Below, piece after piece: positions 3,821 to 63,720 of a DNA stretch of 64,000 nucleotides; position 1 is the stretch's first letter, and every line of letters begins with the position of its first letter. Both the position numbers and the translations under genes were made by a program. This stretch comes from Waddliaceae bacterium (GTDB lineage Bacteria; Chlamydiota; Chlamydiia; Chlamydiales; JABHNK01): contig JABHNK010000021.1 in assembly GCA_018694295.1 (NCBI GenBank), positions 19,292 to 83,291 on the forward strand. The letters run 5' to 3'. Under the pieces are notes generated by a model. It worked only from the letters and a program-made list of their open reading frames with translations. It made no database searches and was not told where the DNA came from.

Positions 3821-4033
3821 TTCGGATTTAGGATTAGGATTTTTCACCACAGAGGACACAGAGAGAAATGGGGCGGTCCAGTTCACCAACATAGGTAACA
3901 CTTTAGTTCACCATTTACAGTTAATCGTTCATAGTTCAAAAATGGGGGTCTGGGGGAGATTCCCCCAGCCAGATTGTTTTCTTTCTCTGTGTCCTCTGTG
4001 ACTCTGTGGTGAAAAATTCCTATTCTGAAATTC
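3821..4033. repeat. Family-A MITE-like element, copy A1
   Basis: Terminal inverted repeats GGATTAGGATTTTTCACCACAGAGGACACAGAGAGAAA / TTTCTCTGTGTCCTCTGTGACTCTGTGGTGAAAAATTCCTATTC. Internal hairpin CTGGGGGAGATTCCCCCAG and a TTCANNG-type low-complexity module. The right end supplies the last codons and stop of the pseG/H gene. Confidence 0.8.
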
Positions 4034-30025: not shown

Positions 30026-30427
30026 TTAAGTATAATCAGAAATAACGATAACACGGCAATATAGTGTTATTCTTAAATGAGCGAAGATGTTTTTTTCTTC
30101 TTCGTTAAATGAGTTTTCTGTTCGAGCTTTAAATGCTTGGTCAATGTGGTCGATAATAACGTTTTTTATTCGCGTTGCTTTATAAGAGCAAAGAACAGTT
30201 ATGATTTTTGCCGTAATTCCCACAGCAACTGCTGCATAGGCAGCCGCGTTAAGTGGCAACAACATGGCGAATGCCAATGAAGCTACAGCTACAATTTTAC
30301 CCACTTGTGCTATCTTTTTGTATTTGTTGTGTTGTTTGATGGCTATATCACCAGTGTTGAACGCACCATCAGCTACAAAAAAAGTATTTAAATGTTCGCT
30401 GGCTTCTTTTGTAAGAGGTACTGTCAT
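30026..30427 (-). CDS. small Inc-like membrane protein (bilobed hydrophobic domain)
   Basis: I chose internal ATG 30427 (MTVPLTKEAS...) because the upstream part of the track ORF runs through repeat C1. There is a ~40-aa bilobed hydrophobic stretch IVAVASLAFAMLLPLNAAAYAAVAVGITAKIITVLCSY. Confidence 0.5.
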   Translation of the reverse strand: MTVPLTKEASEHLNTFFVADGAFNTGDIAIKQHNKYKKIAQVGKIVAVASLAFAMLLPLNAAAYAAVAVGITAKIITVLCSYKATRIKNVIIDHIDQAFKARTENSFNEEEKNIFAHLRITLYCRVIVISDYT

Positions 30428-30521: not shown

Positions 30522-30707
30522 TCCTCACCATCGCAATTGCGATGGTGAGGAACGGCAGCAAAGAAAAGAGCAAATGCGTTGCGCCTTTGCTCTTTTCTTT
30601 GTCGACTAAATGGGGAGTTCAGAGGCGGACACCGCCTTTGGCGCGGGATTGTCAAGGGCGCGCGGAGCGCCCTTGACCGCGGGTGGAGGGGTGCGGAACC
30701 CCTCCAC
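30522..30707 (+). repeat. Family-C modular multi-hairpin repeat, copy C1
   Basis: Five consecutive hairpins: CACCATCG-CAAT-TGCGATGGTG; CAAAGAAAAGAGCAAA..TTTGCTCTTTTCTTTG; AGGCGG-ACAC-CGCCT; GTCAAGGGCGC-GCGGA-GCGCCCTTGAC; GGAGGGGT-GCGGA-ACCCCTCC. Same module order as 46329-46479. Confidence 0.8.
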
Positions 30708-32767
30708 TATTCGATGGAGTGGATTAGTAGTCCTGCTAGTGCGTAGGAGTTTTTTGTGTTGCCGTGTGCTATGGCGTCGAGGATGGCGTTTACGCCTTTG
30801 GTTGTGTGACTTTGTGCTAGTGCTTGGTATGATTCTATTAGGAGCTGTGAAGTCTCGTGTGGTGTTAGTTCGTATAGTAGCGATTGCCGGTGTATTCCCC
30901 ATGGTACGAACGTTTGGAATTGTATTATTTCGTGGTCTTGCTGTCGTGATATCCAGTCTTCGAGGTTTTTTGTATAGGTTTCGCCTTGTCGTAGCCTGAA
31001 GAGGGCGAGGTTGCAGTAGTCGCGGATCAGTGGTGCGCCAGGGTGCTGCTGTTGTTGTTTTAGCAGTGATATTGCTTGTGGTGTGTTGAGGTTTTCGAGG
31101 AGGACGACGAGGGTGGGTACGAGGTCGTTCTGTTTTGCGGAGAAAATTTTCTGTGCTATTGTTAGGAATGTTTTTTCGGGGAGGTGTAAAGCTTCGGCGA
31201 GGATTTTTTTGCGAACTTCTAGCGATGTCGCCGTAACGTATGCGAACTCTTTTTCTTTGTCGGGGGGCATTACTACTTTGTATGCGGTGAGGGCTTTCCC
31301 CGGAGACATGTGTGGCAGGATTGCTATGGTGTCGCGGTCGTTTATCAGCGCTGAGCATATGCTGTCGACGCATTTTGTGCTGCGGAGTTGTAGCAGGGCG
31401 ACGCTGGCGTTGAGGCGCGGCGTTCCTGATGTCGTCGATAGAATTTTTACGAGGGCGTTTTCTACTGCGGGGATGTCTCCTAGCGCTGTTATTGCGAAGA
31501 TGTTCCCATTACTGGCGTGGTGGTATATTATATCGAGGGCGTCGTCGTCGCCAAGGGCGTGTAGTGACGCTGCTGCTGCTATTGCTACGTTATCGATAGG
31601 AGATGCCGACAGGGTTTTTAGCGTGCCGATGCTTTTATCGTCTTTCAGTGCTCCTAGCGCCCATGCACAGGCTTCTTGGTGTAGTGATGACGTGTCGCTG
31701 GCGATGGCGCGGATGTCGGGAAGGAGGTCGTCGCGGTTGTGACGCGCTGCGTTTATTATAGCTTCTATACGTATTGTTTCATCTTCGTCGGTGAGGTGCC
31801 GACGCAGTAGCGCCGTAGCTCGTGAGCTGCCTTCTATGGCGAGAAGTTCCGGGAAGATATACTGTAGCTCTTCGGGAGACTTCGCCATCAGGGCTTCTAT
31901 CTGTCCGAGGGCGGTATAGTATCGTTTCGTTGCTAGGCAGTATGTCGCTTCTAGACGTGTCGCGAGATATGACGACGTTATGCTTCTGTTGATGATATCA
32001 TCGGCGTAGTCGTTGCTGAGGTTTGACAGTGCGTGTATTGCTGCGAGCTGTATCGTGAGGTTTTCGCTCATAGCAGCACGGTATAGTATCGGCAGGACCT
32101 CTGTTGTCGCGACGACACCAGCGCCATATACTGTGAGAAGCTGGTCCTCGACGTCGCGGCTCGAACTTCCGCGCTCAAGAAGTATCATACCCATCTTTTT
32201 CAGGGTGTCGTAGTCGTCAGTGCCGGTGTCGACACATAATCGTCGGTATGATGATATCGCAGAAGCAGTGTCGCCGCTTTGCATAAGGAATAAAGCTTGT
32301 GATGGTGAGTACTCCACAGGAGCTTCTGAAGCGAGGGTTGTGACAACGGGGATATCATTGGCGATAGCATCATCGTTACGCTGAGGAGAACATCCCACAA
32401 GGAACACCGCGAGGAAAACTATTAATAGGAATTTTAGACACGGTTCAAAGCATGCTGTTTTATGGTGGCGGTTGATTTTACCAAAAAGATACAGAAGACT
32501 CTTTCGATTTCCTACTCCGAACTCCGAACTCCGAACTTTTTCACCACAGAGCCACAGAGTACACAGAGAGGACAGCGGACGGGCTAGGGGTTTCACCCCT
32601 AGAACCCCGAGGATTTTCTTTTGGGGTTTTGGGGGTCTGGGGGAGCATCCCCCAGCCAGACTGTTTTCTTTCTCTGTGTTCTCTGTGGCTCTGTGGTGAA
32701 AAATTCTATTCTTATTCCGAATTACGAACTTTTTATCCATACCGAAGTTTATTTTATGCTTTTCCAT
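30707..32767 (-). CDS. HEAT-repeat (PBS-lyase-like) protein, probable lipoprotein; start uncertain
   Basis: Lipobox-like FLAVFLVGCSP encoded near 32390, then repeated HEAT-like units (IRIEAIINAARHNRDDLLPDIRAIASD..., AIAAAASLHALGDDDA...). The only canonical start codons (32767, 32740) lie upstream of the in-frame family-A repeat A2. Confidence 0.6.
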   Translation of the reverse strand: MEKHKINFGMDKKFVIRNKNRIFHHRATENTEKENSLAGGCSPRPPKPQKKILGVLGVKPLARPLSSLCTLWLCGEKVRSSEFGVGNRKSLLYLFGKINRHHKTACFEPCLKFLLIVFLAVFLVGCSPQRNDDAIANDIPVVTTLASEAPVEYSPSQALFLMQSGDTASAISSYRRLCVDTGTDDYDTLKKMGMILLERGSSSRDVEDQLLTVYGAGVVATTEVLPILYRAAMSENLTIQLAAIHALSNLSNDYADDIINRSITSSYLATRLEATYCLATKRYYTALGQIEALMAKSPEELQYIFPELLAIEGSSRATALLRRHLTDEDETIRIEAIINAARHNRDDLLPDIRAIASDTSSLHQEACAWALGALKDDKSIGTLKTLSASPIDNVAIAAAASLHALGDDDALDIIYHHASNGNIFAITALGDIPAVENALVKILSTTSGTPRLNASVALLQLRSTKCVDSICSALINDRDTIAILPHMSPGKALTAYKVVMPPDKEKEFAYVTATSLEVRKKILAEALHLPEKTFLTIAQKIFSAKQNDLVPTLVVLLENLNTPQAISLLKQQQQHPGAPLIRDYCNLALFRLRQGETYTKNLEDWISRQQDHEIIQFQTFVPWGIHRQSLLYELTPHETSQLLIESYQALAQSHTTKGVNAILDAIAHGNTKNSYALAGLLIHSIE
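32505..32729. repeat. Family-A MITE-like element, copy A2 (inside the 5' part of ORF 30707-32767)
   Basis: (CTCCGAA)n flank, then TIR TTTTTCACCACAGAGCCACAGAGTACACAGAGAGG, hairpins CTAGGGGTTTCACCCCTAG and CTGGGGGAGCATCCCCCAG, and right TIR TTTCTCTGTGTTCTCTGTGGCTCTGTGGTGAAAAATTC. Confidence 0.85.
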
Positions 32768-36204: not shown

Positions 36205-36568
36205 CCGAACACCAAACCCCAATTTTCACCACAGAGAACACAGAGCACACAGAGCGCGCCCACTGCGCAGAGCGCGCGCAGCGGACGCACAGCTGTCGCC
36301 ATTGTCATTGATTGTACTTCCTTTCTTTGTTTTCCCTATAGCAAACGTAAAGATACAATCTTACTCTTACGACAATGGCGAGATGGGGCACTGCCGTGTC
36401 CAGGTGATAGGAATAGCGTATAGCGTAGAGTTATAGTTCACCATTTAACGTTCACAGTTCACCGTTCAAAAAAAGGGGTCTGGGGGATTCCCCCAGCCAT
36501 GTCCTTTTTCCTCTCTGTGTTCTCTGTGACTCTGTGGTGAAAAACCCTATTCCGAGCTTCGATTCGAG
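36205..36568. repeat. Family-A MITE-like element, long copy A3
   Basis: Left TIR AATTTTCACCACAGAGAACACAGAGCACACAGAG (from 36221). Right TIR CTCTCTGTGTTCTCTGTGACTCTGTGGTGAAAAACCCTATTCCGAG. Internal hairpin CTGGGGGATTCCCCCAG, TTCACNG-type module and GCGTATAG repeats, plus ~170 bp of extra internal sequence. Confidence 0.75.
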
Positions 36569-42070: not shown

Positions 42071-43843
42071 TTAATCTTTAATGGTTATCTTTAGGTCTTG
42101 GAGCTGTATGTCATCGACAGCACTAGGGGCTTCGGACATAAGGTCTGAGGCTTTCTGCGTCTTTGGGAAGGCAATGACATCGCGGATGTTTTCAGTGCCG
42201 ATCATCACCATAAGGAGCCTATCGAAGCCTATTCCTATGCCGATATGCGGCGGTGTTCCGTAGTTTAGAGCCTCGACGAAGAAGCCGAAACGTCCCTGTA
42301 TCTCTTCTTCGGAGAGCTTAAGAAGCTCGAAGATCTTCTTCTGCGTCATCTCGTCGTGGATGCGTTGCGATCCCGAGGCAAGCTCGTAGCCATTGACGAC
42401 GAGATCGTAGCTCAGAGATCGAACTTTCGTAGCGTCGCTGTCGAGAAGATGGGCGTCTTCGGGATGAGGCGCTGTGAAAGGATGATGCTCGCTGTCGAGA
42501 CGCTCTTCTTCGGCGTTCCACGACATAAGAGGGTAGTCGGTGACCCATAAGAATTCATACTTTCCTGCTTCGATGAGGTCACGGTCTTTGGCAAGACGAC
42601 GACGTAGGTGGTCGAGAGCCTGGTTGGTCCTATTTTTTTCGTCGGCGACGATGAAGATAAGGTCTCCGGGGGCGATGTCGAGAGCGTCGATAAGCTCCTG
42701 CTGAAGACCCTCGTCGAAGAACTTAACTATACTGGAAGTAAGGACGCCTTCATCATTACGCTTCATCCAAGCCAGGCCTTTTACGCCGAACTCCCCGACG
42801 AAGGCAGTATATTCGTCGATCTGTCGGCGTGAGATGTTAGTGCCGCCTTTGACACACAGACCTTTGACGGTATTTCCACCTTTGAGGTTCTCGAGGAATA
42901 TCGAGAAAGTCGACCTCTTGGCGATATCGTCAAGAGTGATGAGCTTCATACCGAAACGTAGGTCAGGCTTGTCGGTGCCGTACGAACCAATACATTCGTC
43001 GTAGGTGAGCCTTTGAAAAGAACCGCCAATAGTGACTCCTAAACTTTTGTCGAAGATCGTAGCAACAAGGCCTTCGATAATATCGAAGAGCTCTTCGGTA
43101 GTAGAGAACGACATCTCCATGTCTATCTGTGTAAATTCTGGCTGCCTGTCAGCACGAAGGTCTTCGTCGCGGAAACATGGAGCTATCTGGAAATATTTGT
43201 CGAGGCCAGAGACCATAAGTAGCTGTTTGAAGATCTGCGGCGACTGTGGAAGCGCATAGAACGAGCCAGGATATATCCTCGAAGGAACAAGATAATCGCG
43301 AGCGCCTTCAGGAGTAGACTTCCCAAGGATAGGAGTCTGTATCTCCATGAAACCCTTAGAGTCGAAGAAATTCCTTGTCGCAAGCATAGCACTATGACGC
43401 AGGGCAAGGTTTTTTATTATTCCACCACGGCGGACGTCAAGGTATCGATAACGTAGGCGTAGCTCTTCGTTGACGTTTATTACCTCGTCACAAACGGAGA
43501 ACGGTGGCGTCTTGGACTTCGACAACACAGCAACGTCACTAACCTCTACTTCGATGTCACCAGTGTCAAGGCTGGAGTTCGCCATGCCGTCGGCACGGGC
43601 GATGACGGTGCCTTTAACGGAAACAACCCACTCGGAACGGAAAGTTTCGGCAATAGCATGACGTTCTTTGTCGACTTCAGGGTCGAAGACCGCCTGCGTG
43701 AAACCATATCGGTCTCTGATATCTATAAAGATAAGACCTCCAAGGTTGCGATGGAGATGTACCCACCCAGAAAGCGTTACCTCTTTGCCGATGTCTTCTT
43801 TGCGAAGCTCTCCACAAGTATGTGTTCTGCGATAGTCAAACAT
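42071..43843 (-). CDS. aspS: aspartyl-tRNA synthetase
   Basis: 590 aa: OB anticodon-binding N-terminus, class IIb motifs (FRDEDLRADRQPEFTQID; GSQRIH; GIGIGFDRL) and bacterial GAD insertion. Confidence 0.9.
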   Translation of the reverse strand: MFDYRRTHTCGELRKEDIGKEVTLSGWVHLHRNLGGLIFIDIRDRYGFTQAVFDPEVDKERHAIAETFRSEWVVSVKGTVIARADGMANSSLDTGDIEVEVSDVAVLSKSKTPPFSVCDEVINVNEELRLRYRYLDVRRGGIIKNLALRHSAMLATRNFFDSKGFMEIQTPILGKSTPEGARDYLVPSRIYPGSFYALPQSPQIFKQLLMVSGLDKYFQIAPCFRDEDLRADRQPEFTQIDMEMSFSTTEELFDIIEGLVATIFDKSLGVTIGGSFQRLTYDECIGSYGTDKPDLRFGMKLITLDDIAKRSTFSIFLENLKGGNTVKGLCVKGGTNISRRQIDEYTAFVGEFGVKGLAWMKRNDEGVLTSSIVKFFDEGLQQELIDALDIAPGDLIFIVADEKNRTNQALDHLRRRLAKDRDLIEAGKYEFLWVTDYPLMSWNAEEERLDSEHHPFTAPHPEDAHLLDSDATKVRSLSYDLVVNGYELASGSQRIHDEMTQKKIFELLKLSEEEIQGRFGFFVEALNYGTPPHIGIGIGFDRLLMVMIGTENIRDVIAFPKTQKASDLMSEAPSAVDDIQLQDLKITIKD

Positions 43844-43864: not shown

Positions 43865-45145
43865 TTATGATGTTAAAATGTCAGCAAGAGCATCGAGAGC
43901 GGCGTCGCGGACGTCGCCAGAAGACATCTCTTTGACCTTCACAGTGCCGGAAGCAAGCTCGTCGGCGCCGACGACGACAGAATACTTGGCGCCAATGCTG
44001 TCGGCATATCCCATGACTTTCTTGAGCTTCTTCCCAGAGAAATCCATCTCTGCAGCGATGCCTTTGTCCCTAAGATTCTGTAGCACCAGAAAACAGCGGC
44101 TTCGTGCTTCGTCGCCAAGAGGTATTATATATAGTGTAGGGTGTGGCTTTTCAGGGAATTTGGCCCCCTGGGAAAGCATCGTCATGATGACACGCTCGAT
44201 GCCAATGCCGAAGCCTATAGCAGGGAGATCAGGGCCGCCGAGAGTCTTGATAAGACTGTCATATCTACCGCCACCGCCGATGCTGTTCTGCGCGCCGAGA
44301 TCGTCGGCAGTAGCTTCGAAGACAGTATTACTATAATAGTCAAGACCCCTGACGAGACTAGGCGTGATATCATAAGGAATAGAAAGATCATCAAGTAAAG
44401 AACACACCTGAGAAAAATGGTCGCGGCATTCGTCGTTGAGACTATCGAGAATAGAAGGAACTTCACGAATAAATTGCTGGTCTTCGGGAGCTTTGGAGTC
44501 CAAAATACGTAGAGGGTTCTTCTCGAAGCGCTCTTTGCTATCGGCAGAAAGCTCAGGAAGATGAGGACGTAAGACGTCTTGTAAAACATCACGGAAACGA
44601 TTGCGGCTTTCGGCGTCGCCGACGGAATTAATCTTTATAGAAAATTTCTCGATGCCAAGGCGTTTGTAGAAATTGTACATCATAGCAATGACCTCAGCAT
44701 CATGCTCAGGAGCGCCACCACCAATAGCCTCTACACCAAACTGATGGTGCTGGCGATACCGTCCCGCCTGCTGCCTCTCATAGCGGAACATCGGAGCAAT
44801 ATAGAATAGCTTGTTTAAAGGAGAACTGTGGTGCATGCTCTTCTCCAAAAAAGAACGTAACACAGAAGCAGTACCTTCAGGACGTAACGTCATAGAACGT
44901 CCACCCTTATCATCAAAGGTATACATCTCCTTGGTGACGATGTCCGACGTCTCGCCAACACCCCTTTTGAAAAGTTCCGTGCGCTCGAATAGCGGTGTCC
45001 TGATCTCACGGAAACCATATTCATAAGAAATACGACGTATCACACCCTCAACATAAGCCCATAAGTCCGACGCCTGCCAAGATAACTCTTCTTTGACGGG
45101 ATTAGGAACAATATCAAAGACACCCTTAGGAATAGAAATATTCAT
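43865..45145 (-). CDS. hisS: histidyl-tRNA synthetase
   Basis: 426 aa. Motifs 1-3 (MFRYERQQAGRYRQHHQFGVE; GGGRYD; GFGIGIERV). Confidence 0.9.
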   Translation of the reverse strand: MNISIPKGVFDIVPNPVKEELSWQASDLWAYVEGVIRRISYEYGFREIRTPLFERTELFKRGVGETSDIVTKEMYTFDDKGGRSMTLRPEGTASVLRSFLEKSMHHSSPLNKLFYIAPMFRYERQQAGRYRQHHQFGVEAIGGGAPEHDAEVIAMMYNFYKRLGIEKFSIKINSVGDAESRNRFRDVLQDVLRPHLPELSADSKERFEKNPLRILDSKAPEDQQFIREVPSILDSLNDECRDHFSQVCSLLDDLSIPYDITPSLVRGLDYYSNTVFEATADDLGAQNSIGGGGRYDSLIKTLGGPDLPAIGFGIGIERVIMTMLSQGAKFPEKPHPTLYIIPLGDEARSRCFLVLQNLRDKGIAAEMDFSGKKLKKVMGYADSIGAKYSVVVGADELASGTVKVKEMSSGDVRDAALDALADILTS

Positions 45146-45202
45146 AGCAAAACCTTATACACCTTTATAGATGCCACGATTATACCCACCACAAACAAAA
45201 TC

Positions 45203-45489
45203 GTCAAGTTAAGGGTGCTCCGCGCACCCTTAACAATCCCGCGACAAAGCAAAGCGCTAAGGCGAAACGCCCTCGCGCCGTGCTTTGCCTTCGATGTCAA
45301 CACCATCGTTTCAACCCGCAATTACTACCAAATCCATGGCCAACCATCTACAGCTGAAGGCAACCTTTTATACGTTTCTCCTCGGCCATGTCTCAAGACA
45401 TGCCCTTGTCAAAATGTATAAAATTTTACCTCCATCTGTAGCGGTTGACCACAGATTTGGTAATAATCGCGGGTTCGATGGCGATGAGG
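45203..45489 (-). repeat. Family-C multi-hairpin repeat, copy C2 (inverted relative to C1/C3, lacks the CCAGAGG hairpin module, interrupted by nested element D)
   Basis: GTCAAG-TTAAGGGTGC-TCCGC-GCACCCTTAA-CAATCCCGCG-ACAAAGCAAAGCG... is the reverse complement of the C1/C3 right half. The CACCATCG...CGATGGCG hairpin is split by 163 bp. Confidence 0.7.
45313..45475. repeat. 163-bp inverted-repeat element D nested in the loop of a family-C hairpin
   Basis: ~45-bp imperfect TIRs AACCCGCAATTACTACCAAATCCATGGCCAACCATCTACAG / CTGTAGCGGTTGACCACAGATTTGGTAATAATCGCGGGTT. Internal perfect hairpin CATGTCT-CAA-GACATG. Confidence 0.75.
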
Positions 45490-45558
45490 AATTTATACCT
45501 GTGATTGCCAGTTAAGATTATAACCTGTTGTTGTAGAAGAATCAGGAGATGGATCGAT

Positions 45559-46251
45559 TCACAATTCCTTCATTAACAGCCCTAAGTCGTCAAGGTTTTT
45601 ATACTCAAGTAATAAACTTTCAAATGCCTCTTCGACTAAACTTTCAAATGTCTTTTTGGCCTCACATTTTTTAAATAATTTGTTTTTTGTAAGCGTTTTT
45701 TTTATTGTTTCTGCTCTTTTTGCTACAAAAACTTTGTCAAAACTAAGTTGATAGCTCTCAAGAGTAGGAGAATCTTCTTTAATAAAACACACAAGGCCTT
45801 TATTAGGGTTATAAATAGTTTGTGCTAAGATAGGTAAAGTAGTGATTTCTTGTCCAGAGTCATACAAGATTTTCAGAGCGCTCTTAACAGTTTTTATGCC
45901 TGTTTTAGTCACTTTCGCCGTAGCTTCTATAAAACAATCAGTAGGATATGTATATCTTTCAGAATATTTATATCCTTTATAACATGTACCGTCATAATAA
46001 TGAGAAGTTTTTTCATTATCAGCAGTAAGAAACATTTTTTTTCTATGTTCATAGACAAGGTCAAAAGCCTCTTGACCTAACGAATCTACTTGTGCTTCCT
46101 GTCTGGCACGCGTTCCATCTTCTCGTTGTGGTGGTGGTGCTAATTCTGATTGTTCTTTGCTTGGTGTTTGTGTCCTTACTAATATTTCTGGTCCTACTAT
46201 TTCTAACTCCATATCCCATAAACCTCTTTCGATTTTATATAAATAAAGCAA
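45559..46251 (-). CDS. AT-rich hypothetical protein flanked by inverted family-C repeats
   Basis: 230 aa from TTG 46251 (or 217 aa from ATG 46212, MELEIVGPE...). No recognisable domain. Confidence 0.45.
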   Translation of the reverse strand: MLYLYKIERGLWDMELEIVGPEILVRTQTPSKEQSELAPPPQREDGTRARQEAQVDSLGQEAFDLVYEHRKKMFLTADNEKTSHYYDGTCYKGYKYSERYTYPTDCFIEATAKVTKTGIKTVKSALKILYDSGQEITTLPILAQTIYNPNKGLVCFIKEDSPTLESYQLSFDKVFVAKRAETIKKTLTKNKLFKKCEAKKTFESLVEEAFESLLLEYKNLDDLGLLMKEL

Positions 46252-46328
46252 AAGTTTAGCGCTTAACAGAATATAAAAAAAAGGATTTCTTGTTGGGCTG
46301 GGTTTAAAAAAAGCTGTAAGGTCAAATT

Positions 46329-46479
46329 TTCATCGCCATCGTTTCGATGGTGATGACGGCGGCGACAAAGCAAAATGTAAAGGCGAAACGCCTTTACATT
46401 TTGCTTTGTCGCTTACATGGGGAGTCCAGAGGAGAATTTCTCCTCTGGCGCGGTTTGTCAAGGGTGCGGAACCCTTGAC
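46329..46479 (+). repeat. Family-C modular multi-hairpin repeat, copy C3
   Basis: CATCGCCATCG-TTTC-GATGGTGATG; ACAAAGCAAAATGTAAAGGCG-AAA-CGCCTTTACATTTTGCTTTGT; CCAGAGGAGAA-TT-TCTCCTCTGG; GTCAAGGGT-GCGGA-ACCCTTGAC. The last hairpin encodes the final 7 codons and stop of ORF 46458-48374. Confidence 0.8.
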
Positions 46480-48374
46480 ATTGTAGTAGTGGAGTCTGAG
46501 ATTAGGCTATTGAGATCGTTGTAGAGGCTATTGCTGACGTAGTCGTGTAGGCTCATGGATTCTACGACGGTTTTGAAGACGGGGAAGTTTTCGTATGGGG
46601 ATTTTTTTACGTATGACGCGAAGAATTTCTCTAGTGCTCCTTCGATGATATTGTGGTGTGTCAGTGCTTCTTCTTTGTAGCGTTGTTCTATTAGGGAGTA
46701 TTGCTCGTCGAAGTCTTCGAAGGGTTTTCTGTTGTATGAGGCCAGGAGTGCGACGATATCTTCGGAGATGATGTTTAGTGAAGCGTGGCGTGTTTTAACT
46801 AGTTGTGCTAGGGCTTCGTGCATCATGGTACGATATATTATGGCGTTCTCATCTTCGAGGCCTTCGCCTTCGAAGACGTTGAGGGCGGTGGTTTCGCCAT
46901 CGTAAGAGGGGATGCTAGGCATGGCGATGTCTATGGTGTCGTCGTCGATGAAGAGCATAGCGCCGCTGGAGATAGGGGCTTCTACTAAAGCGCTACGTGT
47001 TATCTTTTTGGAGGTGCTGTCGAAGGTGAGGTGTCCCATGATGAAACCTTTCAGCGCAGGATGGCCTGCGAGCTTTAGGTATGTTTCGTAGCCTTTCTTC
47101 GTCGTTATCGGCATATACAACACGGTATCGTTGCGGGAAGCGAGGTTTTTGCTGATGAAAGACGCTGCTTCGTTGTCATAGACGGTGGAGTCTGAAGGGA
47201 AGATATTACTAGTAACTTCTTTTAGTACGGCGGTGCTGAAGGGGAAGAAACGTGGTGCGTTGTATACGACATTCTTTGCGCCAGGATGCTCTATGGCGAG
47301 AGACTCTGGAGGGGCGAAGCCCATGCCATTGCCGTCGTCGAGAGAAGATAGTGTTATTACGGGTTCTTTTTTTGCGAGAGCGGCGATGTCTGAAGCAAGA
47401 GATGCGTTTATGAAGAGGGTGTTGTTAAAAAGGTCTTCCCAGGCCTTTACGTTAGAAACTTTGTGCAATATCATCGTCGTGCTGTCGAGGAGGTACGAGG
47501 CCTTTGGGAAAATACTCTGCATCGGCGATGGCGATGGCGTAGCAAGAAGGGCATAGTGCGATAGGTTACTGTTGGTGATGATGTTGACTTTGTACTTAGA
47601 CGATCCTAATATTCCACGGCTGCTTATGGGGAACGCAGTCCTGTAGCCGTCGGGAAGGACGGCATCGTAGTGAGCTTTTAATAGCAATGGCGATGTGTAG
47701 TCGTTGGCAGCACCGGGATCATCGCTGCGGGTAAGCTGCGCATGGGCGAGAGCCATGGAGATATCAACGAGGTCGCGTGCGGCGCTATGTTCTGCGGCGG
47801 CGGTGTTGCGCGACATAACATCATACCCGTGCCATAACGCAAAAGCAGCGGACAGTGCCACGACAAAAACTGCGGCATGACGCCACAGCGTAAAAACTTT
47901 TCTGAGAGGTTTCAAAAAATTAAAGCTGCGACGAGGACGCCGAGCAGGAAAGTTTTCTCCGGGCTTCTCGTAGTATGGCTCTTCGTATGTAGGAGAGGGT
48001 TTTGCTGCGGCAACGGTGGCATTATTCGACGGTGACGAAGCGGTGTCGATGCCATAGCGACTGTCGATCTCTGCAAAAAAAGATTCCTCCGAAGGAGAAA
48101 CGAAATCAGAACGACGCTTTTTTGGTTTTAAAGGCGACAAGACGACCTCATCGAGGAGGGTGTCGATGTCGACTCTTTTATCGGAGCGAGGCTTCTCGTA
48201 AGAGAAGTCTTCATCGAAAGAATATTTGGCTGAAGGTGTTATGGTCTCGGAGACCACGTCTTCAAGGATTTCTTCGAACGCCGCATCAGAAGAGGCAGGA
48301 TTAGTAGCGCCTTGCAAAAGGTCGCCGAAAATATCGTCAAAGTCGTCGTTCGATGTGAAGTTGTCGTTGTCCAT
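46458..48374 (-). CDS. hypothetical membrane-anchored protein (acidic N-terminus, one TM, large C-terminal domain)
   Basis: 638 aa: acidic start MDNDNFTSNDDFDDIFGDLL, TM AAVFVVALSAAFALW at ~aa 170, and no recognisable catalytic motif. Confidence 0.5.
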   Translation of the reverse strand: MDNDNFTSNDDFDDIFGDLLQGATNPASSDAAFEEILEDVVSETITPSAKYSFDEDFSYEKPRSDKRVDIDTLLDEVVLSPLKPKKRRSDFVSPSEESFFAEIDSRYGIDTASSPSNNATVAAAKPSPTYEEPYYEKPGENFPARRPRRSFNFLKPLRKVFTLWRHAAVFVVALSAAFALWHGYDVMSRNTAAAEHSAARDLVDISMALAHAQLTRSDDPGAANDYTSPLLLKAHYDAVLPDGYRTAFPISSRGILGSSKYKVNIITNSNLSHYALLATPSPSPMQSIFPKASYLLDSTTMILHKVSNVKAWEDLFNNTLFINASLASDIAALAKKEPVITLSSLDDGNGMGFAPPESLAIEHPGAKNVVYNAPRFFPFSTAVLKEVTSNIFPSDSTVYDNEAASFISKNLASRNDTVLYMPITTKKGYETYLKLAGHPALKGFIMGHLTFDSTSKKITRSALVEAPISSGAMLFIDDDTIDIAMPSIPSYDGETTALNVFEGEGLEDENAIIYRTMMHEALAQLVKTRHASLNIISEDIVALLASYNRKPFEDFDEQYSLIEQRYKEEALTHHNIIEGALEKFFASYVKKSPYENFPVFKTVVESMSLHDYVSNSLYNDLNSLISDSTTTMSRVPHP

Positions 48375-48523
48375 ATTAGCATTTCCCTTCTATATATTAG
48401 ATAAAGGAAGTTTTATCATAAGGAGGATAAGGCGTCAATGATGGTTTGACATTAATCGTAAGATTCGTCATCGTAGGACAAATTGTTTTGTTTTTTGTAG
48501 ATATTAACAAAAGAGGAAAATCC

Positions 48524-49894
48524 ATGAGAAAGTTGATAAATATCTTTAAGCCCGCACCGTTCATCGAGACTATGGCAGACGAAGAGCAGGTGAAGAAAAG
48601 CTATAAATATTGGCGTATACGAACCTTCTACGCGATGTATATAGGGTATGTGTTTTATTACTTCACAAGGAAAAGCTTCATATTCGCCATGCCGGCACTA
48701 ATCGCCGACCTTGGCTTTAGCATCACAGACCTAGGAATACTGGCGAGTATCCTCTCTATAACCTATGGCGTCAGCAAGTTCGCCAGCGGCATCCTCGGTG
48801 ACAGGTCAAACCCTCGATATATTATGAGCTTCGGACTAATAATAACGGGTTTTATAAATATCTTCTTCGGGATGTCTTCGTCGATATATGCTTTCGCAAT
48901 ATTCTGGGGGCTGAACGGATGGTTCCAAGGGTTCGGATGGCCGCCGGCATGTAGACTGCTAACACACTGGTATTCACAAAAAGAAAGAGGGACGTGGTGG
49001 TCGCTGTGGAGTACTTCGCATAATGTCGGGGGAGCGATAATCCCGCTATTAGTAGCATTTTGTGTGCTTCATTACGGATGGCGGTATGCTATGTATGTCC
49101 CAGGAGTCCTTTGTATCGTGGTAGGGCTCTTCATAATGAACAGACTCCGTGACACCCCGCAATCACTAGGGCTTCCTTCGATAGAGAACTTCAAGGACGA
49201 CCATGTCAAAGGCGAAGCGCGCGACAAAAAAGAAAGAGAGTTCACCGTCAAGGAGATCCTCTTCAAATACATCCTAAAAAATAAGATAATATGGATGCTA
49301 GGTATTTCGTATTTCTTCGTATATATAGTACGGCAGGGAGTTAACGACTGGAGTGCTATGTTCCTCATCGACACTAAAGGATACAAAGAGGTCTCTGCTA
49401 ACCTTACTATTACCGCTTTCGAGATAGGAGGATTCTTCGGGATGCTCGTAGCAGGATTTGCGTCGGATTATATCTTCAAAGGACGTAGAGTCCCTGTAAT
49501 GGTGCTATATATGGTGGCGATACTAATACCATTCCTCGGGTTGATTATGATAAAAACAACGGCAGTAACTCTCGATATAATATTGCTGGGAGCTATAGGA
49601 TTCTTCATCTTCGGACCGCAGATGCTTATAGGATGTACAGCGGCAGACTTCTCACACAAAAAAGCCGCAGCGACAGCGACGGGTTTCGTAGGATGCTTCG
49701 CTTATATCGGCGCAGCAGTGGCAGGATACCCTTTGACATATATCATTAAACTGTGGGGATGGGATGGCTTTTTATACGCTATGGCAGGGTGTAGCATAAT
49801 AACAATAGCACTAATGGTACCACTTATAAATATAAGCATCAGAGATGATAGCGATGCCAAAGAAGAAAGAAAAGAAGCTAAAGAATACGCATAG
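48524..49894 (+). CDS. uhpC: hexose-phosphate transporter UhpC (MFS organophosphate:Pi antiporter family)
   Basis: I prefer ATG 48524, preceded by AGAGGA, over the track TTG 48446. 12-TM MFS with the KYWRIRTFYAMYIGYVFYYFTRKSF N-terminus typical of UhpC/GlpT. The hisS...uhpC-dnaE order is as in Chlamydia. Confidence 0.85.
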   Translation: MRKLINIFKPAPFIETMADEEQVKKSYKYWRIRTFYAMYIGYVFYYFTRKSFIFAMPALIADLGFSITDLGILASILSITYGVSKFASGILGDRSNPRYIMSFGLIITGFINIFFGMSSSIYAFAIFWGLNGWFQGFGWPPACRLLTHWYSQKERGTWWSLWSTSHNVGGAIIPLLVAFCVLHYGWRYAMYVPGVLCIVVGLFIMNRLRDTPQSLGLPSIENFKDDHVKGEARDKKEREFTVKEILFKYILKNKIIWMLGISYFFVYIVRQGVNDWSAMFLIDTKGYKEVSANLTITAFEIGGFFGMLVAGFASDYIFKGRRVPVMVLYMVAILIPFLGLIMIKTTAVTLDIILLGAIGFFIFGPQMLIGCTAADFSHKKAAATATGFVGCFAYIGAAVAGYPLTYIIKLWGWDGFLYAMAGCSIITIALMVPLINISIRDDSDAKEERKEAKEYA

Positions 49895-49900
49895 TTAGGA

Positions 49901-50280
49901 GTATAACCCATGATTGCGACCTATACTTCGCCATAGGGTTTTTGCAGTAGTATAGGTGCGAAGATGAAAGACGAGCGAATGTTAAAACATTCGCGAGAAT
50001 AGAATCAAAGCAAATGTGCTGCTGCAAAAAGATATATGGTGAAGCCAAATAATAGCAAATGGGCAAAGAAAAACAATAAGAAATAGTAATGGCTTAAGAT
50101 ATTTATCTTAACACGTTTATATTTTTGTCAGAGCTTTTTAAAAATGAAAAAAAGGTCTTGTTTCCTATAGCATCCATAGTATCAGGCAACCTGACTCATT
50201 TTGCTCCTCGCGAATAGTTACAACTATTTGCTTGTCGCTCACTGAGCCATCTTGCCCAAATTCTATGGTGTTAAAGGAAA
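49901..50280 (-). repeat. Family-B composite repeat, copy B2 (inverted copy of 2341-2682)
   Basis: The reverse complement aligns by eye with B1 over both conserved blocks; the AT-rich centre differs. Fills the uhpC-dnaE spacer. Confidence 0.8.
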
Positions 50281-50304
50281 TATAGGTCGCAATTATGGGT
50301 AAAG

Positions 50305-57945: not shown

Positions 57946-58175
57946 TTCGGAATTAGGAGTAGGATTTTTCACCACAGAGCCACAGAGAACACAGAGAAAG
58001 AATGCAATCTGGCTGGGGGTCTCCCCCAGACCCCGTTAGGAAAGAAAAATAATGAATGCAGATTAATGAATGCTGAATATTATGCCCTCGGGGTTCTAGG
58101 GGTGAAACCCCTAGCCCGCCCTATTTCTCTCTGTGTTCTCTGTGGCTCTGTGGTGAAAAATCCTGTCTTCTGAAG
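57946..58175. repeat. Family-A MITE-like element, copy A4 (internal modules inverted relative to A2)
   Basis: TIRs GGAATTAGGAGTAGGATTTTTCACCACAGAGCCACAGAGAACACAGAGAAAG / TTTCTCTCTGTGTTCTCTGTGGCTCTGTGGTGAAAAATCC. Hairpins CTGGGGGTCTCCCCCAG and CTAGGGGTGAAACCCCTAG. The right ~55 bp are read as the last ~18 codons of ksgA. Confidence 0.85.
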
Positions 58176-60209: not shown

Positions 60210-60962
60210 TCAGTCATAGTAATTTTCGTATAAAACTTTCCCCAATCCAAGGGTAGAAGCAGTGAGAGTAAAAGCAGAAGAAAGTAATGAGGGATAAAGA
60301 CCTCCTGCCGAGACAATTTCCGCTAAAATAACGGGGAAAACTTTTATTGTAGATAAAAATAAGCAAGAGACTTCTATTTTATAGTCTGGATTGCGCTGCA
60401 TAGCCTGAAGAAACACTATAGGATTGCGCGCCTCAGAGACTGCAACTCTTGTGCGCTCATTGAGCTTTTCGAGGTTTTTAATAAAATGAACGCTTTCGGA
60501 CGTTGTGTCGAAGAAAGAAAAACCTTGCCCTATAGATTTTTTGGTACGAGCACTTATTTTTATTATCTCAGCAGAAGATAGCCAAAAAACAAGGCTAAGT
60601 GTTGGTGCTAAAAAATCAACACAGTCTAATACGATTGTTCTTATGAAAGTTGAGGAAAAATAAGAGGGCTTATCGAAAGGTTTTAAAACATTAGGGTATG
60701 AAAAAAAACGTATAGTGGTATGCGCTGCACCGAAAAAGTTGCGGTTTCTGGAAAAAGAAGAGCAAGAGCTAAAACGAGGAACCGCTGCTAATAAACCGAA
60801 AAAATCCTTCGCGAACTTTGCTGTCTTCATAGTGTTCTTAGAAGTAGAACAAGCGACTCCACAGGCATTGATGGAATTCTTAAGGGCAGTAGTAAATTTA
60901 CAGCATAAAGTTGCAGGGAAACTTGAGGAAACACGATCTGCTGAAGCATCTCTAAATGCCAC
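60210..60962 (-). CDS. hypothetical membrane protein, possibly Inc-like
   Basis: 250 aa, GTG start, Ser/Phe-rich. The C-terminal hydrophobic pair VFPVILAEIVSAGGLYPSLLSSAFTLTASTLGLG is bilobed-like. Coding status is less certain. Confidence 0.35.
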   Translation of the reverse strand: MAFRDASADRVSSSFPATLCCKFTTALKNSINACGVACSTSKNTMKTAKFAKDFFGLLAAVPRFSSCSSFSRNRNFFGAAHTTIRFFSYPNVLKPFDKPSYFSSTFIRTIVLDCVDFLAPTLSLVFWLSSAEIIKISARTKKSIGQGFSFFDTTSESVHFIKNLEKLNERTRVAVSEARNPIVFLQAMQRNPDYKIEVSCLFLSTIKVFPVILAEIVSAGGLYPSLLSSAFTLTASTLGLGKVLYENYYD

Positions 60963-61030
60963 TGATAATATACCTTATAAAAACGAATTGTAAAAACATA
61001 TGATAGAAGATTGGCAGGGAAATGTACAGC

Positions 61031-61073
61031 AAAAAAATAAAAAAAATGCCGGCGAAGATTTCTTCACCGGCAT
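61031..61073 (-). terminator. Rho-independent terminator after ORF 61097-61987
   Basis: Minus-strand read ATGCCGGTGAAG-AAAT-CTTCGCCGGCAT followed by a T-run. Confidence 0.7.
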
Positions 61074-61096
61074 ATATAAAAAATGCTTAAAAACGA

Positions 61097-61987
61097 TTAT
61101 GCTGTTGCCGCTTCTTCTTCAGCATTTTTTCTTTTATTATAGTCTTGGGAGAGTATCGAGACGCAACCCATGATACCGGAAGCGGCATAAAGACCATTTG
61201 CTGTATTGAAAGAAGTGAGTACATTAAGGAAATTGCTCTTTTTCGCTGTGAAGACAAGAGCGGCAGTGTCGACAGTGTTTTTTATGAAAGAGATAAGTTC
61301 ATTTCCGATGTTTCGTACTTTATAGATAGTACTGTGCTTTTCCGTGTCGTGTAGAATGTTGGAAACTGCTTTCACGTTGAGCAATAACGCCGATGTTAAC
61401 GATGCGAGGGCACTGCAAGATAGAGTAAGGCCTACAGCACTGGCCTTCTTCCCCAAATCTATTATTTTTATAGATTCGAGCCAACGCAGTGAAGCGCAGT
61501 TTGTCGCTATTGCAGCACATGTTCCGCGGAAAGTGCTGACAATTCCTTCTTTAGAGCTACCGTCTTCTGTGAAAAGTTTCGAAAAGGTGAAACGTTCTTT
61601 GTCAAACCATTTGCCGTCCTTTTTAAAGAACATCGTTTCCTTGAAGGAGTCGGCAAATTTTATTGCGGAGCGTCCGCTTTTCATCAAAGCAGCCGATTCA
61701 GAAGAAGGATTAGATATAAGAAGAAAAGGAAAGATACTCTTAAACAAGCGTTCTCGACCTGAAGCAGTTCCAGCAATAAGCCCCAAAGCAGAAAAAATCT
61801 TGTCAGCAACAAAGCCTACAGCTTTAAAAGGTGTAGTAACGACAGTGATACTATGACCAAAAAACGTTTCAGGAGAACGAGGAGCTTCATCAGTCGCTAG
61901 TGCTACTGTTATATATGCTGCAGGATTATCAGTTCTTGTTGTGTTTCCTTCTGTAGGGTTGGGTTGTATGCCAGCTTTGGTGACCAT
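61097..61987 (-). CDS. Inc-like membrane protein paralogue 1
   Basis: ATG 61987 preceded by AAAGGAGAAATCATT (MVTKAGIQPN...). Shares the IIDLGKKASAVG / ...EEEAATA pattern with 62144-62896 and 63049-63720. Confidence 0.55.
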   Translation of the reverse strand: MVTKAGIQPNPTEGNTTRTDNPAAYITVALATDEAPRSPETFFGHSITVVTTPFKAVGFVADKIFSALGLIAGTASGRERLFKSIFPFLLISNPSSESAALMKSGRSAIKFADSFKETMFFKKDGKWFDKERFTFSKLFTEDGSSKEGIVSTFRGTCAAIATNCASLRWLESIKIIDLGKKASAVGLTLSCSALASLTSALLLNVKAVSNILHDTEKHSTIYKVRNIGNELISFIKNTVDTAALVFTAKKSNFLNVLTSFNTANGLYAASGIMGCVSILSQDYNKRKNAEEEAATA

Positions 61988-62084
61988 AATGATTTCTCCT
62001 TTAAAAGTTGTTAGCAAGACGTTTAAAAACGATACTAGATTATAAAAACACATGAAAAATGTAAACGTAAATGTATCTCATAAT
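61988..62084 (-). promoter_or_regulatory. conserved ~95-nt upstream region of Inc-like paralogue 1 with putative sigma-70/66-type promoter
   Basis: Aligns by eye with 62897-62984. The minus strand reads TTTACA-N15-TATAAT (-10 at 62039-62044), then a ~45-nt leader ending in AAAGGAG. The spacer is short, so this is tentative. Confidence 0.4.
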
Positions 62085-62115
62085 AAAAAAAAAGCTCTCT
62101 TAACTAAAAGAGAGC
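62085..62115 (-). terminator. Rho-independent terminator after ORF 62144-62896
   Basis: Minus-strand read GCTCTCTT-TTAGTT-AAGAGAGC followed by T9. Confidence 0.7.
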
Positions 62116-62143
62116 CATAAAGATCAAAAAATAGTTATAGAGA

Positions 62144-62896
62144 CTATGCCGCTTCTGTTGCCATTTCTTCTTGTCCTTCTCTTAGATTTTCTAAATCTTT
62201 ATTAAGAAAAACAGAGATACATCCAATGGATCCTGAGAACAAGCCAAAAGCACAAGCAGCAGGAAGAGCAACGGCAGGTGCCGTCTCTGCAAAGATGAAG
62301 TAGAACATATTTGCAATCTCTGATACTATAGCAACAGATTGTACTGAAGCAGTGAACTTTCTCTCTTCACCCCGTTTGTCTCGAATCGTTTTGTATAAAT
62401 CGCTCGCGTTTATTATCGCTTTTAAGCCATGCGCAACAGAGGCAGTACCAATTACAGCGCCTCCTATCTTAGAAGAAGCTTTGCCAAGGGAGATGATAGC
62501 AAGCTTTTCGATGACGAGCATAAAACAAAAAATATCGGCAACGGTTACAGCAATACGAGCACATACGTTGACAAGGCCTTCTCTTGGAATCTCTTGCTCT
62601 TCAGCTTCTTTAGTGAATAGATTTTTTGGAATGCCGATGCTCTTAGTAGACCACCATTTATAGTCTTCAAAAACATCACCACAACAAATTACATCGTGGG
62701 TGTGAGAAGCATACTCCACTGCTGTTTTAAGCTTTAAATCATGAAAAAAACCAGTGAAAAATATTAAAAGGCTTTTCATGCCATCACGTTCGCCAGAGAT
62801 AGTGCATGAAGGAGATACAAGAGTATTAAAGAAGGAGAATGCTTCCCATTTTAACGGAAAACTTGTTTCCCATTTTAATTGTTCGCTTTGACTCAT
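62144..62896 (-). CDS. Inc-like membrane protein paralogue 2
   Basis: 250 aa with ATG preceded by AAGGTGAAATCGTT. ISLGKASSKIGG, KFTASVQ and the bilobed hydrophobic MFYFIFAETAPAVALPAACAFGLFSGSIGCISVFL. Confidence 0.6.
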   Translation of the reverse strand: MSQSEQLKWETSFPLKWEAFSFFNTLVSPSCTISGERDGMKSLLIFFTGFFHDLKLKTAVEYASHTHDVICCGDVFEDYKWWSTKSIGIPKNLFTKEAEEQEIPREGLVNVCARIAVTVADIFCFMLVIEKLAIISLGKASSKIGGAVIGTASVAHGLKAIINASDLYKTIRDKRGEERKFTASVQSVAIVSEIANMFYFIFAETAPAVALPAACAFGLFSGSIGCISVFLNKDLENLREGQEEMATEAA

Positions 62897-62984
62897 AACG
62901 ATTTCACCTTAAAAGTTGTTGGCTAGATATTTAGAAACAAAACTAGAGTATAAAAACGCATGAAAAAGGTAAATGAAAATATAC
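62897..62984 (-). promoter_or_regulatory. conserved upstream region of Inc-like paralogue 2 (TTTACC-N15-TATACT + leader)
   Basis: Homologous to 61988-62084, as seen by eye. Confidence 0.35.
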
Positions 62985-63019
62985 AAAAAATGCCCTTCTA
63001 AATAAATATTAGGAGGGCA
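62985..63019 (-). terminator. Rho-independent terminator after ORF 63049-63720
   Basis: Minus-strand read TGCCCTCCT-AATATTTATTT-AGAAGGGCA (one G-U pair) followed by T6. Confidence 0.6.
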
Positions 63020-63048
63020 CCATAAACAAAAAAATGATAAATATTTTT

Positions 63049-63720
63049 TTATACTTGTTTTGTTTTTTCTTCTACTACTACTACGACCTTTTGGTTTTTC
63101 AACACATCGACGTAGTGAGCATCAGCGTGAGCTAGTGCTCCAGAGACTATTCCGAAAAAAGCAGCTCCAGGAATTCCTCCGCCGAAACATGCGAAGAGGA
63201 AATATGTTACTTGAGTAGCTTTCGTTGCCACCGACAGAAATTGAACACGAGCAGTGAACTTCCAGCCTACTTTCTTTTCGCTGATAGTATTGCATAGCTC
63301 TTTAGCTTTCATAGCACCTATTATGCCATAGGCAACGGATCCCGTGACGCCTATAGTGTGTACCATCTTTTTAGCAGTGCTTTTGCCTAGAGATATAAGC
63401 TTGGTACTGCTGACGAAAAGGACGGTATTAACAACGTCGGCAATGCTGCCGTTAATGCCAATACTTAGATTGGTAACGTTTTTTTCTTTTTCTTTTAAAA
63501 ACTTGTAGTCGTCACGAAGGTCTGCTAGACAAACTAGCTCTCGGATAAAATTAAAGAATGTTGCTACTACTTTATTGTTGGTAGCCTCAGCACACCAGCG
63601 AACAACTTGTAAATCACCTTTAATGATAGTACGGTTTTTTTCAGAAGAAGCTTCATGAAAGAAACTTTTTATCTGTGCCGTTTGTATGCCAATTTGTTGT
63701 ATTGTTGCTGATGCGTTCAT
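63049..63720 (-). CDS. Inc-like membrane protein paralogue 3
   Basis: I chose ATG 63720, preceded by AAAGAGGAATTTATT (MNASATIQQ...). ISLGKSTAKKM, KFTARVQ and the bilobed VTYFLFACFGGGIPGAAFFGIVSGALAHA. Confidence 0.6.
   Translation of the reverse strand: MNASATIQQIGIQTAQIKSFFHEASSEKNRTIIKGDLQVVRWCAEATNNKVVATFFNFIRELVCLADLRDDYKFLKEKEKNVTNLSIGINGSIADVVNTVLFVSSTKLISLGKSTAKKMVHTIGVTGSVAYGIIGAMKAKELCNTISEKKVGWKFTARVQFLSVATKATQVTYFLFACFGGGIPGAAFFGIVSGALAHADAHYVDVLKNQKVVVVVEEKTKQV

Follow-up and report, generated by a model that had tools for sequence, protein, structure and literature searches.

The BOX elements of Streptococcus pneumoniae (boxA-boxB-boxC) are modular, structured, intergenic repeats of 100-200 nt that carry no transposase and vary in their number of boxB modules. 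Repetitive extragenic palindromic (REP) sequences are recognized as folded single strands and serve as targets for other mobile elements (PMC3733652, PMC2817692, PMC3333891), and one end of the palindrome is marked by a conserved tetranucleotide, GTAG or CGTC (PMC3733652). The CGTC tag is also carried by the Rickettsia palindromic elements (RPEs), which insert in frame inside genes (PMC3733652), and REP palindromes are themselves entered by the insertion sequences (IS) IS1397 and ISKpn1 and by IS110-family elements (PMC1525189, PMC12288879). In Chlamydiae, small structured repeats are poorly described. Here, we examine a 64,000-nt stretch of DNA from an uncultured marine member of this group, a Waddliaceae bacterium (contig JABHNK010000021.1, positions 19,292 to 83,291; hereafter, the window), whose spacers are filled by several families of such repeats. 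Our main subject is one of them, family C, two inverted copies of which (C2 and C3) flank an AT-rich orphan gene, ORF217 (ORF, open reading frame), upstream of hisS, with a further element, D, nested inside C2. On balance, this locus is probably a stack of small, interspersed, structured repeats resembling REP, BOX and miniature inverted-repeat transposable elements (MITEs) around a lineage-specific gene, and not one mobile unit.

Family C is a non-coding series of four to five hairpins, 150-190 nt in length, arranged in the fixed order h1-h2-h3-h4(-h5). The sampled sequence of the organism amounts to ~96 kb, comprising the window, extensions of the window and a second contig (L039), and within this sample exactly four copies, C1 to C3 in the window and C4 in L039, were recovered by BLAST, by patterns for the modules and by R1, a covariance model derived from these copies. 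C4 was the only new copy to emerge from a metagenome scan with the h2 pattern; it is a solo copy that directly follows the pntB stop codon and precedes an acetyltransferase (GNAT) gene, and it belongs to the same or a very close organism, its contig having five repeat families, and no genes, in common with the window. Because C4 lies at an unrelated locus and the flanking genes are mutually unrelated, family C qualifies as a genuine interspersed repeat. For example, the genes beside C1 (the HEAT-repeat gene ORF686 and the small ORF133) are unrelated to those beside C3; joint copying of C1 and C3 along with paralogous flanking genes was considered and rejected, the flanking proteins being unrelated.

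An earlier inspection of the letters alone (hereafter, the sequence-only reading) had placed C1, C2 and C3 correctly and had recognized that C2 runs in reverse orientation without the third hairpin (CCAGAGG). Its description of the hairpins as perfect does not hold throughout: h2 of C2 is interrupted by two mismatches and also contains two G.U pairs, and several stems include G.T; the linkers that it called conserved are only partially so. Folding is far stronger than expected by chance, with z-scores of -14.5 for C3, -16.5 for C2 with D and -11.8 for C1, and not one of 200 shuffles folded equally well. C2 and C3 are ~71-77% identical, and h4 in C2 is of a different type; in the h1 hairpin and the base of h2, their likeness exceeds that of either copy to C1. 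No family C module stands on its own in the sample (module patterns, BLAST and R1), and no copy was found at the hisS loci of relatives (R1 search) or in viral contigs (pattern scan). The family also has no terminal inverted repeats, as its 5' end (TCATCGCCATCG) is not complementary to its 3' end (CACCCTTGAC). Rfam provided no match to family C, a tRNA-Leu being the only feature of the window to reach threshold, and an E-value search of positions 45100-46600 returned generic long-hairpin models (miRNA precursors) only, all of them far below threshold.

The stems of family C are conserved as pairs while the sequences diverge. In the four-copy alignment of hairpins 2-4, 97.4% of the cells are standard pairs, relative to 39-55% in a control in which the 3' partner was slid by 1-3 columns, and eight pairs have changed on both sides, as opposed to 3.4 +/- 1.3 in shuffles. 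The interior of h2 is nearly wholly different among the copies, yet paired, and a single h4 position displays all three compensatory steps, reading C-G in C1 and C3, U.G in C4 and U-A in C2. The non-Watson-Crick positions are distributed unevenly between the strands: on the forward (h1-to-h4) strand they consist of 11 G.T and no A.C (h3 corrected by hand), and element D likewise forms nine G.U pairs on the family C forward strand versus one on the other. Folding is also stronger for the forward strand, in D as well as in each of the four copies; this strand is antisense to the adjoining genes at C1, C3 and C4, and sense at C2/D. The overall skew is weak, and neither transcription- nor replication-linked deamination alone accounts for all of the loci. 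Taken as a whole, these data do no more than suggest a strand polarity in the wobble pairs of family C.

A separate observation concerns the last hairpin of family C, whose motif CGCGG(G)ATTGTYAAGGG-loop-CCCTTRAC recurs in unrelated bacteria. Carriers include Candidatus Pantoea haifensis (L014, L017, L027, L032, L037), Aeromonadaceae (L016, L031, L033, L034), Limnobaculum (L006, L021, L028, L030, L035, L036) and Erwinia (L015, L018, L022, L024, L029, L038). In Pantoea and the Aeromonadaceae, the motif resides within tandem, non-coding units of 420-690 nt that match the Rfam family TwoAYGGAY (RF01731). All that these bacteria have in common with family C is a 17-nt motif and a hairpin, and matches of genome contigs to an h4-plus-linker pattern were rejected as family members, scoring at most 29 bits with R1, over h4 only.

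Element D separates the 5' arm of h1 in C2 from the loop, sitting precisely at their junction, and ends in the termini AACCCGCRATTAYTACC. Without it, h1 of C2 reads TCATCGCCATCG-GAAA-CGATGGTGTTGA (CCATCG-GAAA-CGATGG), and h1 of C3 at the matching place reads TCATCGCCATCG-TTT-CGATGGTGATGA (CCATCG-TTT-CGATGG). Since the removal of D restores h1 as it is in C3, D looks like a clean insertion at a stem-loop junction, and its nesting in the first hairpin of C2, as originally proposed, is corroborated by a clean junction and an empty site rebuilt by comparison with C3. The junctions (CCATCG / AACCC...GGGTT / GAAACGATGG) leave room for a duplication of one nucleotide (G) at most (0-1 nt). In place of the ~45-bp terminal inverted repeats that had been ascribed to D, the whole element forms one stem of ~70 bp, which on the minus strand comprises 61 Watson-Crick and nine G.U pairs (-103 kcal/mol); at the DNA level, a 33-nt pair of arms is 85% complementary and is followed by a 46-nt pair at 74%.

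Like a MITE, D is small, is bounded by terminal inverted repeats and has no coding capacity. Of the further MITE feature, namely several copies or an autonomous partner, D shows only a resemblance of its 17-nt termini (AACCCGCGATTATTACC) to those of family E, a larger repeat of the same genome, with 12-13 of 17 positions matching. No second copy of D was found in the window, in L039, L045 or L047, or in viral contigs. The element presumably arrived by transposition. Because it occurs only once, it cannot demonstrate the preference of one small element for the hairpin loop of another that the sequence-only reading had seen.

All four copies of family C lie between co-directional genes, and at three of them the upstream gene has its stop codon next to or overlapping the h4/h5 end. 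The stop codon of ORF686 (30707-30709) overlaps the last base of C1, and that of pntB falls within a partial duplicate of the last arm of C4. At C3, h4 encodes the last seven codons (MSRVPHP) and the TGA stop of ORF638, suggesting that C3 rewrote the C-terminus of this gene. C2 is opposite in orientation and begins 70 nt past the stop codon of ORF217; the last base of its outer h4 end is directly followed by the -35 hexamer of a promoter-like site for hisS. In the other copies of the family, the arm CCCTTGAC itself contains TTGAC. A scan of both strands of 45000-46700 for terminator-like sites, i.e., a hairpin followed by a T-run, returned none. The hairpins of family C probably act as 3'-end barriers in transcripts. 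Visible effects on genes would include an altered C-terminus of a native gene at C3 and, at C2, an abutted hisS promoter and the hosting of a nested insertion.

The gene enclosed by C2 and C3 is the lineage-specific component of the locus. On the minus strand, the order is the FKBP gene (mip-like), aspS, hisS, C2 with D, ORF217, C3 and ORF638, and beyond ORF638 the plus strand continues with uhpC and dnaE. The arrangement mip-aspS-hisS / uhpC-dnaE corresponds to what we take to be the order of CT541-CT545 in Chlamydia trachomatis, with two extra ORFs in the window. The sequence-only reading had correctly set the C2-ORF217-C3 unit between hisS and uhpC, but the unit is not the sole occupant of this interval, which also holds the 638-aa ORF at 46458-48374. 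ORF638 is homologous to an 823-aa ORF of Protochlamydia (E-value 5e-29 over 414 aa) flanked by hisS on one side and by the counterpart of uhpC, an MFS transporter gene, on the other, and because this homologue occupies the same place, ORF638 is regarded as native. With ORF638 native and ORF217 unrelated to the 823-aa ORF, ORF217 is the only lineage-specific insert; a derivation of ORF217 as the split-off C-terminus of an ancestral ORF638/823 gene was rejected, there being no similarity. The order hisS-aspS-FKBP-SpoU is kept in three relatives. Comparison of the hisS-uhpC spacer, proposed as a check, revealed a variable slot upstream of hisS, with ORF217 absent from the relatives: the nearest of them (HisS 66% identical) has a HepT/MNT toxin-antitoxin pair there (L040 373-1159; L041 636-1362), and a second has a 1936-aa ORF. 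Since even the nearest HisS is only 66% identical, the compared data contain no orthologous empty site.

Despite its isolation, ORF217 is a real gene, because its open frame exceeds those of shuffled sequence and its GC by codon position (0.45, 0.34, 0.22) looks coding; the frame runs for 255 codons, versus 69 +/- 16 (maximum 160) in shuffles of the low-GC island that contains it. The limits of this island (45490-46328) coincide exactly with the inner (h1) ends of the inverted C2 and C3. The GC content of the gene is 33.6%, and its third-position value (GC3) of 0.22 is the lowest of the 52 ORFs in the window (0.45 +/- 0.09 overall). The ORF and its inverted flanks are as first described, although its extent is not: in place of 45559-46251 (230 aa), the gene probably starts at the ATG at 46212, which has an AGAGG motif 10 nt upstream and agrees with the NCBI annotation of 217 aa. 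No match was found in Pfam, NCBIfam, PHROGs or PDB, no homologue in a search of 5.8 billion proteins, and no match in phages or plasmids, while two matches to repeat proteins in an exhaustive search of 1.8 billion proteins proved spurious. Structure prediction, also suggested at the outset, was uninformative (single-sequence AlphaFold, pLDDT 34), with no family or structure match. The exact sequences of ORF230/217, ORF638 and HisS recur in metagenome-assembled genomes labeled Waddliaceae bacterium and in ENA, JGI and Logan contigs of up to 191 kb; five locus-spanning contigs are 99.94-100% identical to the window and uninformative as population variants, and the same arrangement, in a single orientation, is present in 22 of the 22 contigs that contain ORF217. 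For annotation purposes, ORF217 is best regarded as an orphan occupying a variable slot, not as transposon cargo.

Set against the described systems, family C works like REP, BOX and MITE elements but lacks several features of membership in the REP and MITE classes. Like the REP sequences and bacterial interspersed mosaic elements (BIMEs) of Enterobacteria and Pseudomonas, which are served by a REP-associated tyrosine transposase (RAYT), it sits at gene 3' ends without terminal inverted repeats or target duplication. Unlike them, it is one fixed series of different hairpins and not a succession of alternating 20-40 bp units, its modules never occur alone, and it forms no mosaic clusters with variable linkers. 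Likewise, no tag is common to the copies: GTAG appears only downstream of C3, and the only copies with CGTC beside h1 are C3 and C4, where it is on the reverse strand. REP/BIME systems combine high copy number with a RAYT; the ~96 kb sampled here contains four copies of family C and no Y1_Tnp or other transposase domain among its genes. BOX elements are similar in being modular, intergenic and highly structured, in losing or gaining modules and in encoding no transposase, but they have no sequence similarity to family C, in which h3 can be lost or h5 added, and they inhabit another phylum. The RPEs provide a parallel as small palindromic repeats of an obligate intracellular host that can become coding, as C3 has in ORF638, but family C is located at gene ends, with only one copy overlapping coding sequence. 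The absence of terminal inverted repeats also separates family C from MITEs. Element D is closer to MITEs and REPINs, being a short, non-coding, long hairpin with terminal inverted repeats and with termini in common with the larger family E; it differs in being single-copy in the sampled sequence, in its lack of a clear target duplication (0-1 nt) and in having no known partner transposase. Finally, the landing of D in C2 recalls that of IS1397, ISKpn1 and IS110-family elements within the hairpins of another repeat, except that these are autonomous and have inserted many times, whereas D is non-autonomous and has inserted once, with no demonstrated preference.

Together, these comparisons suggest how the locus may have been assembled. 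In this Waddliaceae-like genome, where at least five repeat families fill the intergenic spacers, family C would be a non-autonomous member. Its sequences have diverged, yet compensatory and wobble changes have preserved the pairing of its stems, and so it may be propagated or maintained via a form that needs the folded hairpins, most likely a single-stranded DNA or RNA intermediate recognized by its structure by an enzyme acting in trans. Spread of the REP/RAYT or IS200/IS605 type would fit better than cut-and-paste by a DDE-type transposase, since family C has neither terminal inverted repeats nor a target duplication. Element D would be a MITE-like element with the terminal sequence of family E that inserted precisely at the stem-loop junction of h1 in C2, and C2 and C3 would be diverged relatives beside ORF217 as opposed to transposon ends. 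As a test case, family C combines stem pairing that is conserved among diverged paralogs with wobble pairs skewed toward a single strand, and it bears on the question of whether selection acts on a single-stranded transposition intermediate or on RNA.

Several observations weigh against this account. No enzyme able to move C or D was found in the sampled 96 kb, any genome-wide number of C copies is an extrapolation because only four are known, and D is single-copy, with its mobility deduced from its shape and termini only. The wobble polarity comes from few independent events (~8 in C and nine in D). In random 165-nt control windows, the difference between strands has a standard deviation of 10 kcal/mol, and no consistent polarity is seen in family E; the asymmetry in folding energy was downgraded as proof of polarity for these two reasons. 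The better-folding strand is antisense to the neighboring genes in three of the four copies, which a pure role as hairpins of the 3' untranslated region would not predict. In addition, a C copy lies directly upstream of two of the three genes with the lowest GC3 in the window, with the h1 end facing the gene, a hint that C and accessory genes are connected in a way for which independent insertions offer no explanation.

This last observation, together with the presence of a copy on each side of ORF217 and the fact that C4 precedes a gene pair of lower GC, raises the idea that low-GC orphan genes enter this genome at family C copies, which would serve in single-stranded form as strand-specific landing or recombination sites. 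The association was drawn post hoc (roughly p = 0.01), and we consider the idea very unlikely; if it is true, an obligate intracellular lineage would be capturing genes with no integron integrase. Still more improbable is the specific version in which the inverted copies are attC-like capture sites or bound an invertible segment within which ORF217 is flipped. Structure kept without sequence and strand-biased folding are both properties of attC, and C copies do lie at junctions of core and low-GC genes, but the 96 kb encodes no integrase or invertase, the copies are inverted instead of directly repeated, both strands of the hairpins give GTYAAGGG...CCCTTRAC where attC sites would have the order R''...R', and the orientation is the same in all contigs. 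An attC site would be expected to have an integrase close by, to be directly oriented and to carry the cores R''(RYYYAAC)...R'(GTTRRRY), none of which has a counterpart here. It is also improbable that C2-ORF217-C3 is a composite mobile cassette of the kind that the sequence-only reading had suggested, in which the inverted C copies would be ends that carry, or in the past carried, the AT-rich ORF along as a unit. A cassette would explain why the low-GC island ends exactly at both inner h1 ends, why the resemblance of C2 to C3 is greatest in h1 and the base of h2, why ORF217 is missing from relatives with a variable slot, and why C1 and C4 are also directly upstream of lower-GC genes. It is difficult to reconcile with the divergence of C2 from C3 in both sequence and modules, with outer flanks (...ATCGTCAAG and ATTGTAGTAG...) that share no direct repeat, and hence with no target-site duplication around the unit, and with the lack of any transposase or recombinase in or near the unit or elsewhere in the ~96 kb (Pfam domains of genes). 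Nor was a second ORF217 or unit found in the 5.8- and 1.8-billion protein sets, in phages or in plasmids; all 22 contigs have the same arrangement, C1 and C4 are solo, and ORF638, in the same hisS-uhpC interval, is native and syntenic.

Two further readings assign family C a function in the host. One holds that family C encodes a structured small RNA in several gene copies, each transcribed on the forward strand from the AT-rich spacer on the h1 side; transcription would be divergent from the adjacent gene, and the RNAs of C1, C3 and C4 would terminate opposite the 3' end of the upstream gene, to which they are antisense. The compensatory changes with G.U intermediates, the better folding of the forward strand in four copies and D, and an AT-rich region with -10-like hexamers before h1 in each copy are what such a gene would lead one to expect; against these stand the failure of any forward-strand promoter upstream of h1 to satisfy the scan criteria, the lack of a U-tract terminator after h4 or of an Rfam match, a strand asymmetry in C1 and C3 that is within random-window noise, and the absence of copies from the syntenic loci of relatives. 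Moreover, one copy has lost a hairpin and one has gained a 163-nt insertion, changes that a functional RNA would tolerate poorly, and we regard this reading as doubtful. It is likewise unlikely that family C comprises host-selected arrays of 3'-end hairpins (terminators, insulators or mRNA stabilizers) that separate transcription units. No T-run follows any hairpin and there are no terminator-like sites, the wobble pairs favor the non-mRNA strand in three of four copies, C2 is oriented opposite to transcription, and only about 4 of roughly 80 sampled intergenic spacers carry a copy, even though all four copies separate co-directional genes, three begin at the upstream stop codon, the hairpins are very stable on both strands, and the end of C2 is the start of the hisS promoter. 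A stack of interspersed repeats beside a lineage-specific gene is the reading that we retain, and the features on which it is built are collected in Table 1.

Table 1. Coordinates of the repeats and genes discussed in the text (window numbering unless a contig is named).
Feature	Position	Strand	Description
C1	30522-30707	+	Solo copy, five hairpins; R1 144.8 bits
C1 hairpins	h1 30522-30551; h2 30559-30601; h3 30620-30641; h4 30651-30677; fifth 30683-30707		
C2	45203-45489	-	Forward (h1 to h4) sense on minus strand; R1 78.4 bits
C2 parts	h4 45208-45234; linker 45235-45243; h2 45245-45287		h2 imperfect
C2 h1 arms	45297-45308 and 45476-45487		h3 absent
Element D	45313-45475	-	163 nt, non-coding, one long near-perfect hairpin
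C3	46329-46479	+	Forward sense on plus strand; R1 129.2 bits
C3 hairpins	h1 46330-46356; h2 46362-46412; h3 46426-46448; h4 46457-46479		h2 with 22 perfect bp
Promoter-like site for hisS	45179-45207	-	TTGACG-17 nt-TATAAT, 11/12 consensus, sigma-70-type
aspS	42071-43843	-	
hisS	43865-45145	-	Gene downstream of the C2-ORF217-C3 unit
ORF217	45559-46212	-	217 aa; 230 aa if TTG at 46251 is the start
ORF638	46458-48374	-	638 aa; native chlamydia-specific gene
uhpC-like MFS transporter gene	48446-49894	+	Divergent from ORF638
Family E copies	49905-50301; 2332-2664; L039 1609-2002	+ (49905-50301)	
Family F copies	32537-32707; 57961-58164; 3847-4020; 36435-36562; L039 2759-2905		

Two of the other repeat families of this genome are MITE-like. 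Family E consists of strongly folded elements of 340-400 nt with the terminal inverted repeats AACCCRTGATTGCGACC, and its copy at 49905-50301 takes up the whole uhpC-dnaE spacer, ending 3 nt before the dnaE start codon. Members of family F, ~200 nt long, end in inverted repeats that match perfectly over as much as 37 nt (TTTTTCACCACAGAGCCACAGAG...) and contain the internal hairpins CTGGGGGA and CTAGGGGT.

Three groups of genes elsewhere in the window also deserve mention. Directly downstream of C1, ORF133 (30026-30427, minus strand; GC3 0.29, no Pfam match) encodes a two-lobed hydrophobic stretch of ~40 residues that is reminiscent of chlamydial inclusion-membrane proteins. At 16191-23334 (minus strand), there are five tandem ORFs; the four with a Pfam match have protein-kinase domains and share diverged DNA repeats of 64-78% identity. 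Finally, four tandem genes of ~250-318 aa at 60210-63804 (minus strand), with no Pfam match and a GC3 of 0.31-0.35, possibly constitute a lineage-specific paralogous family.

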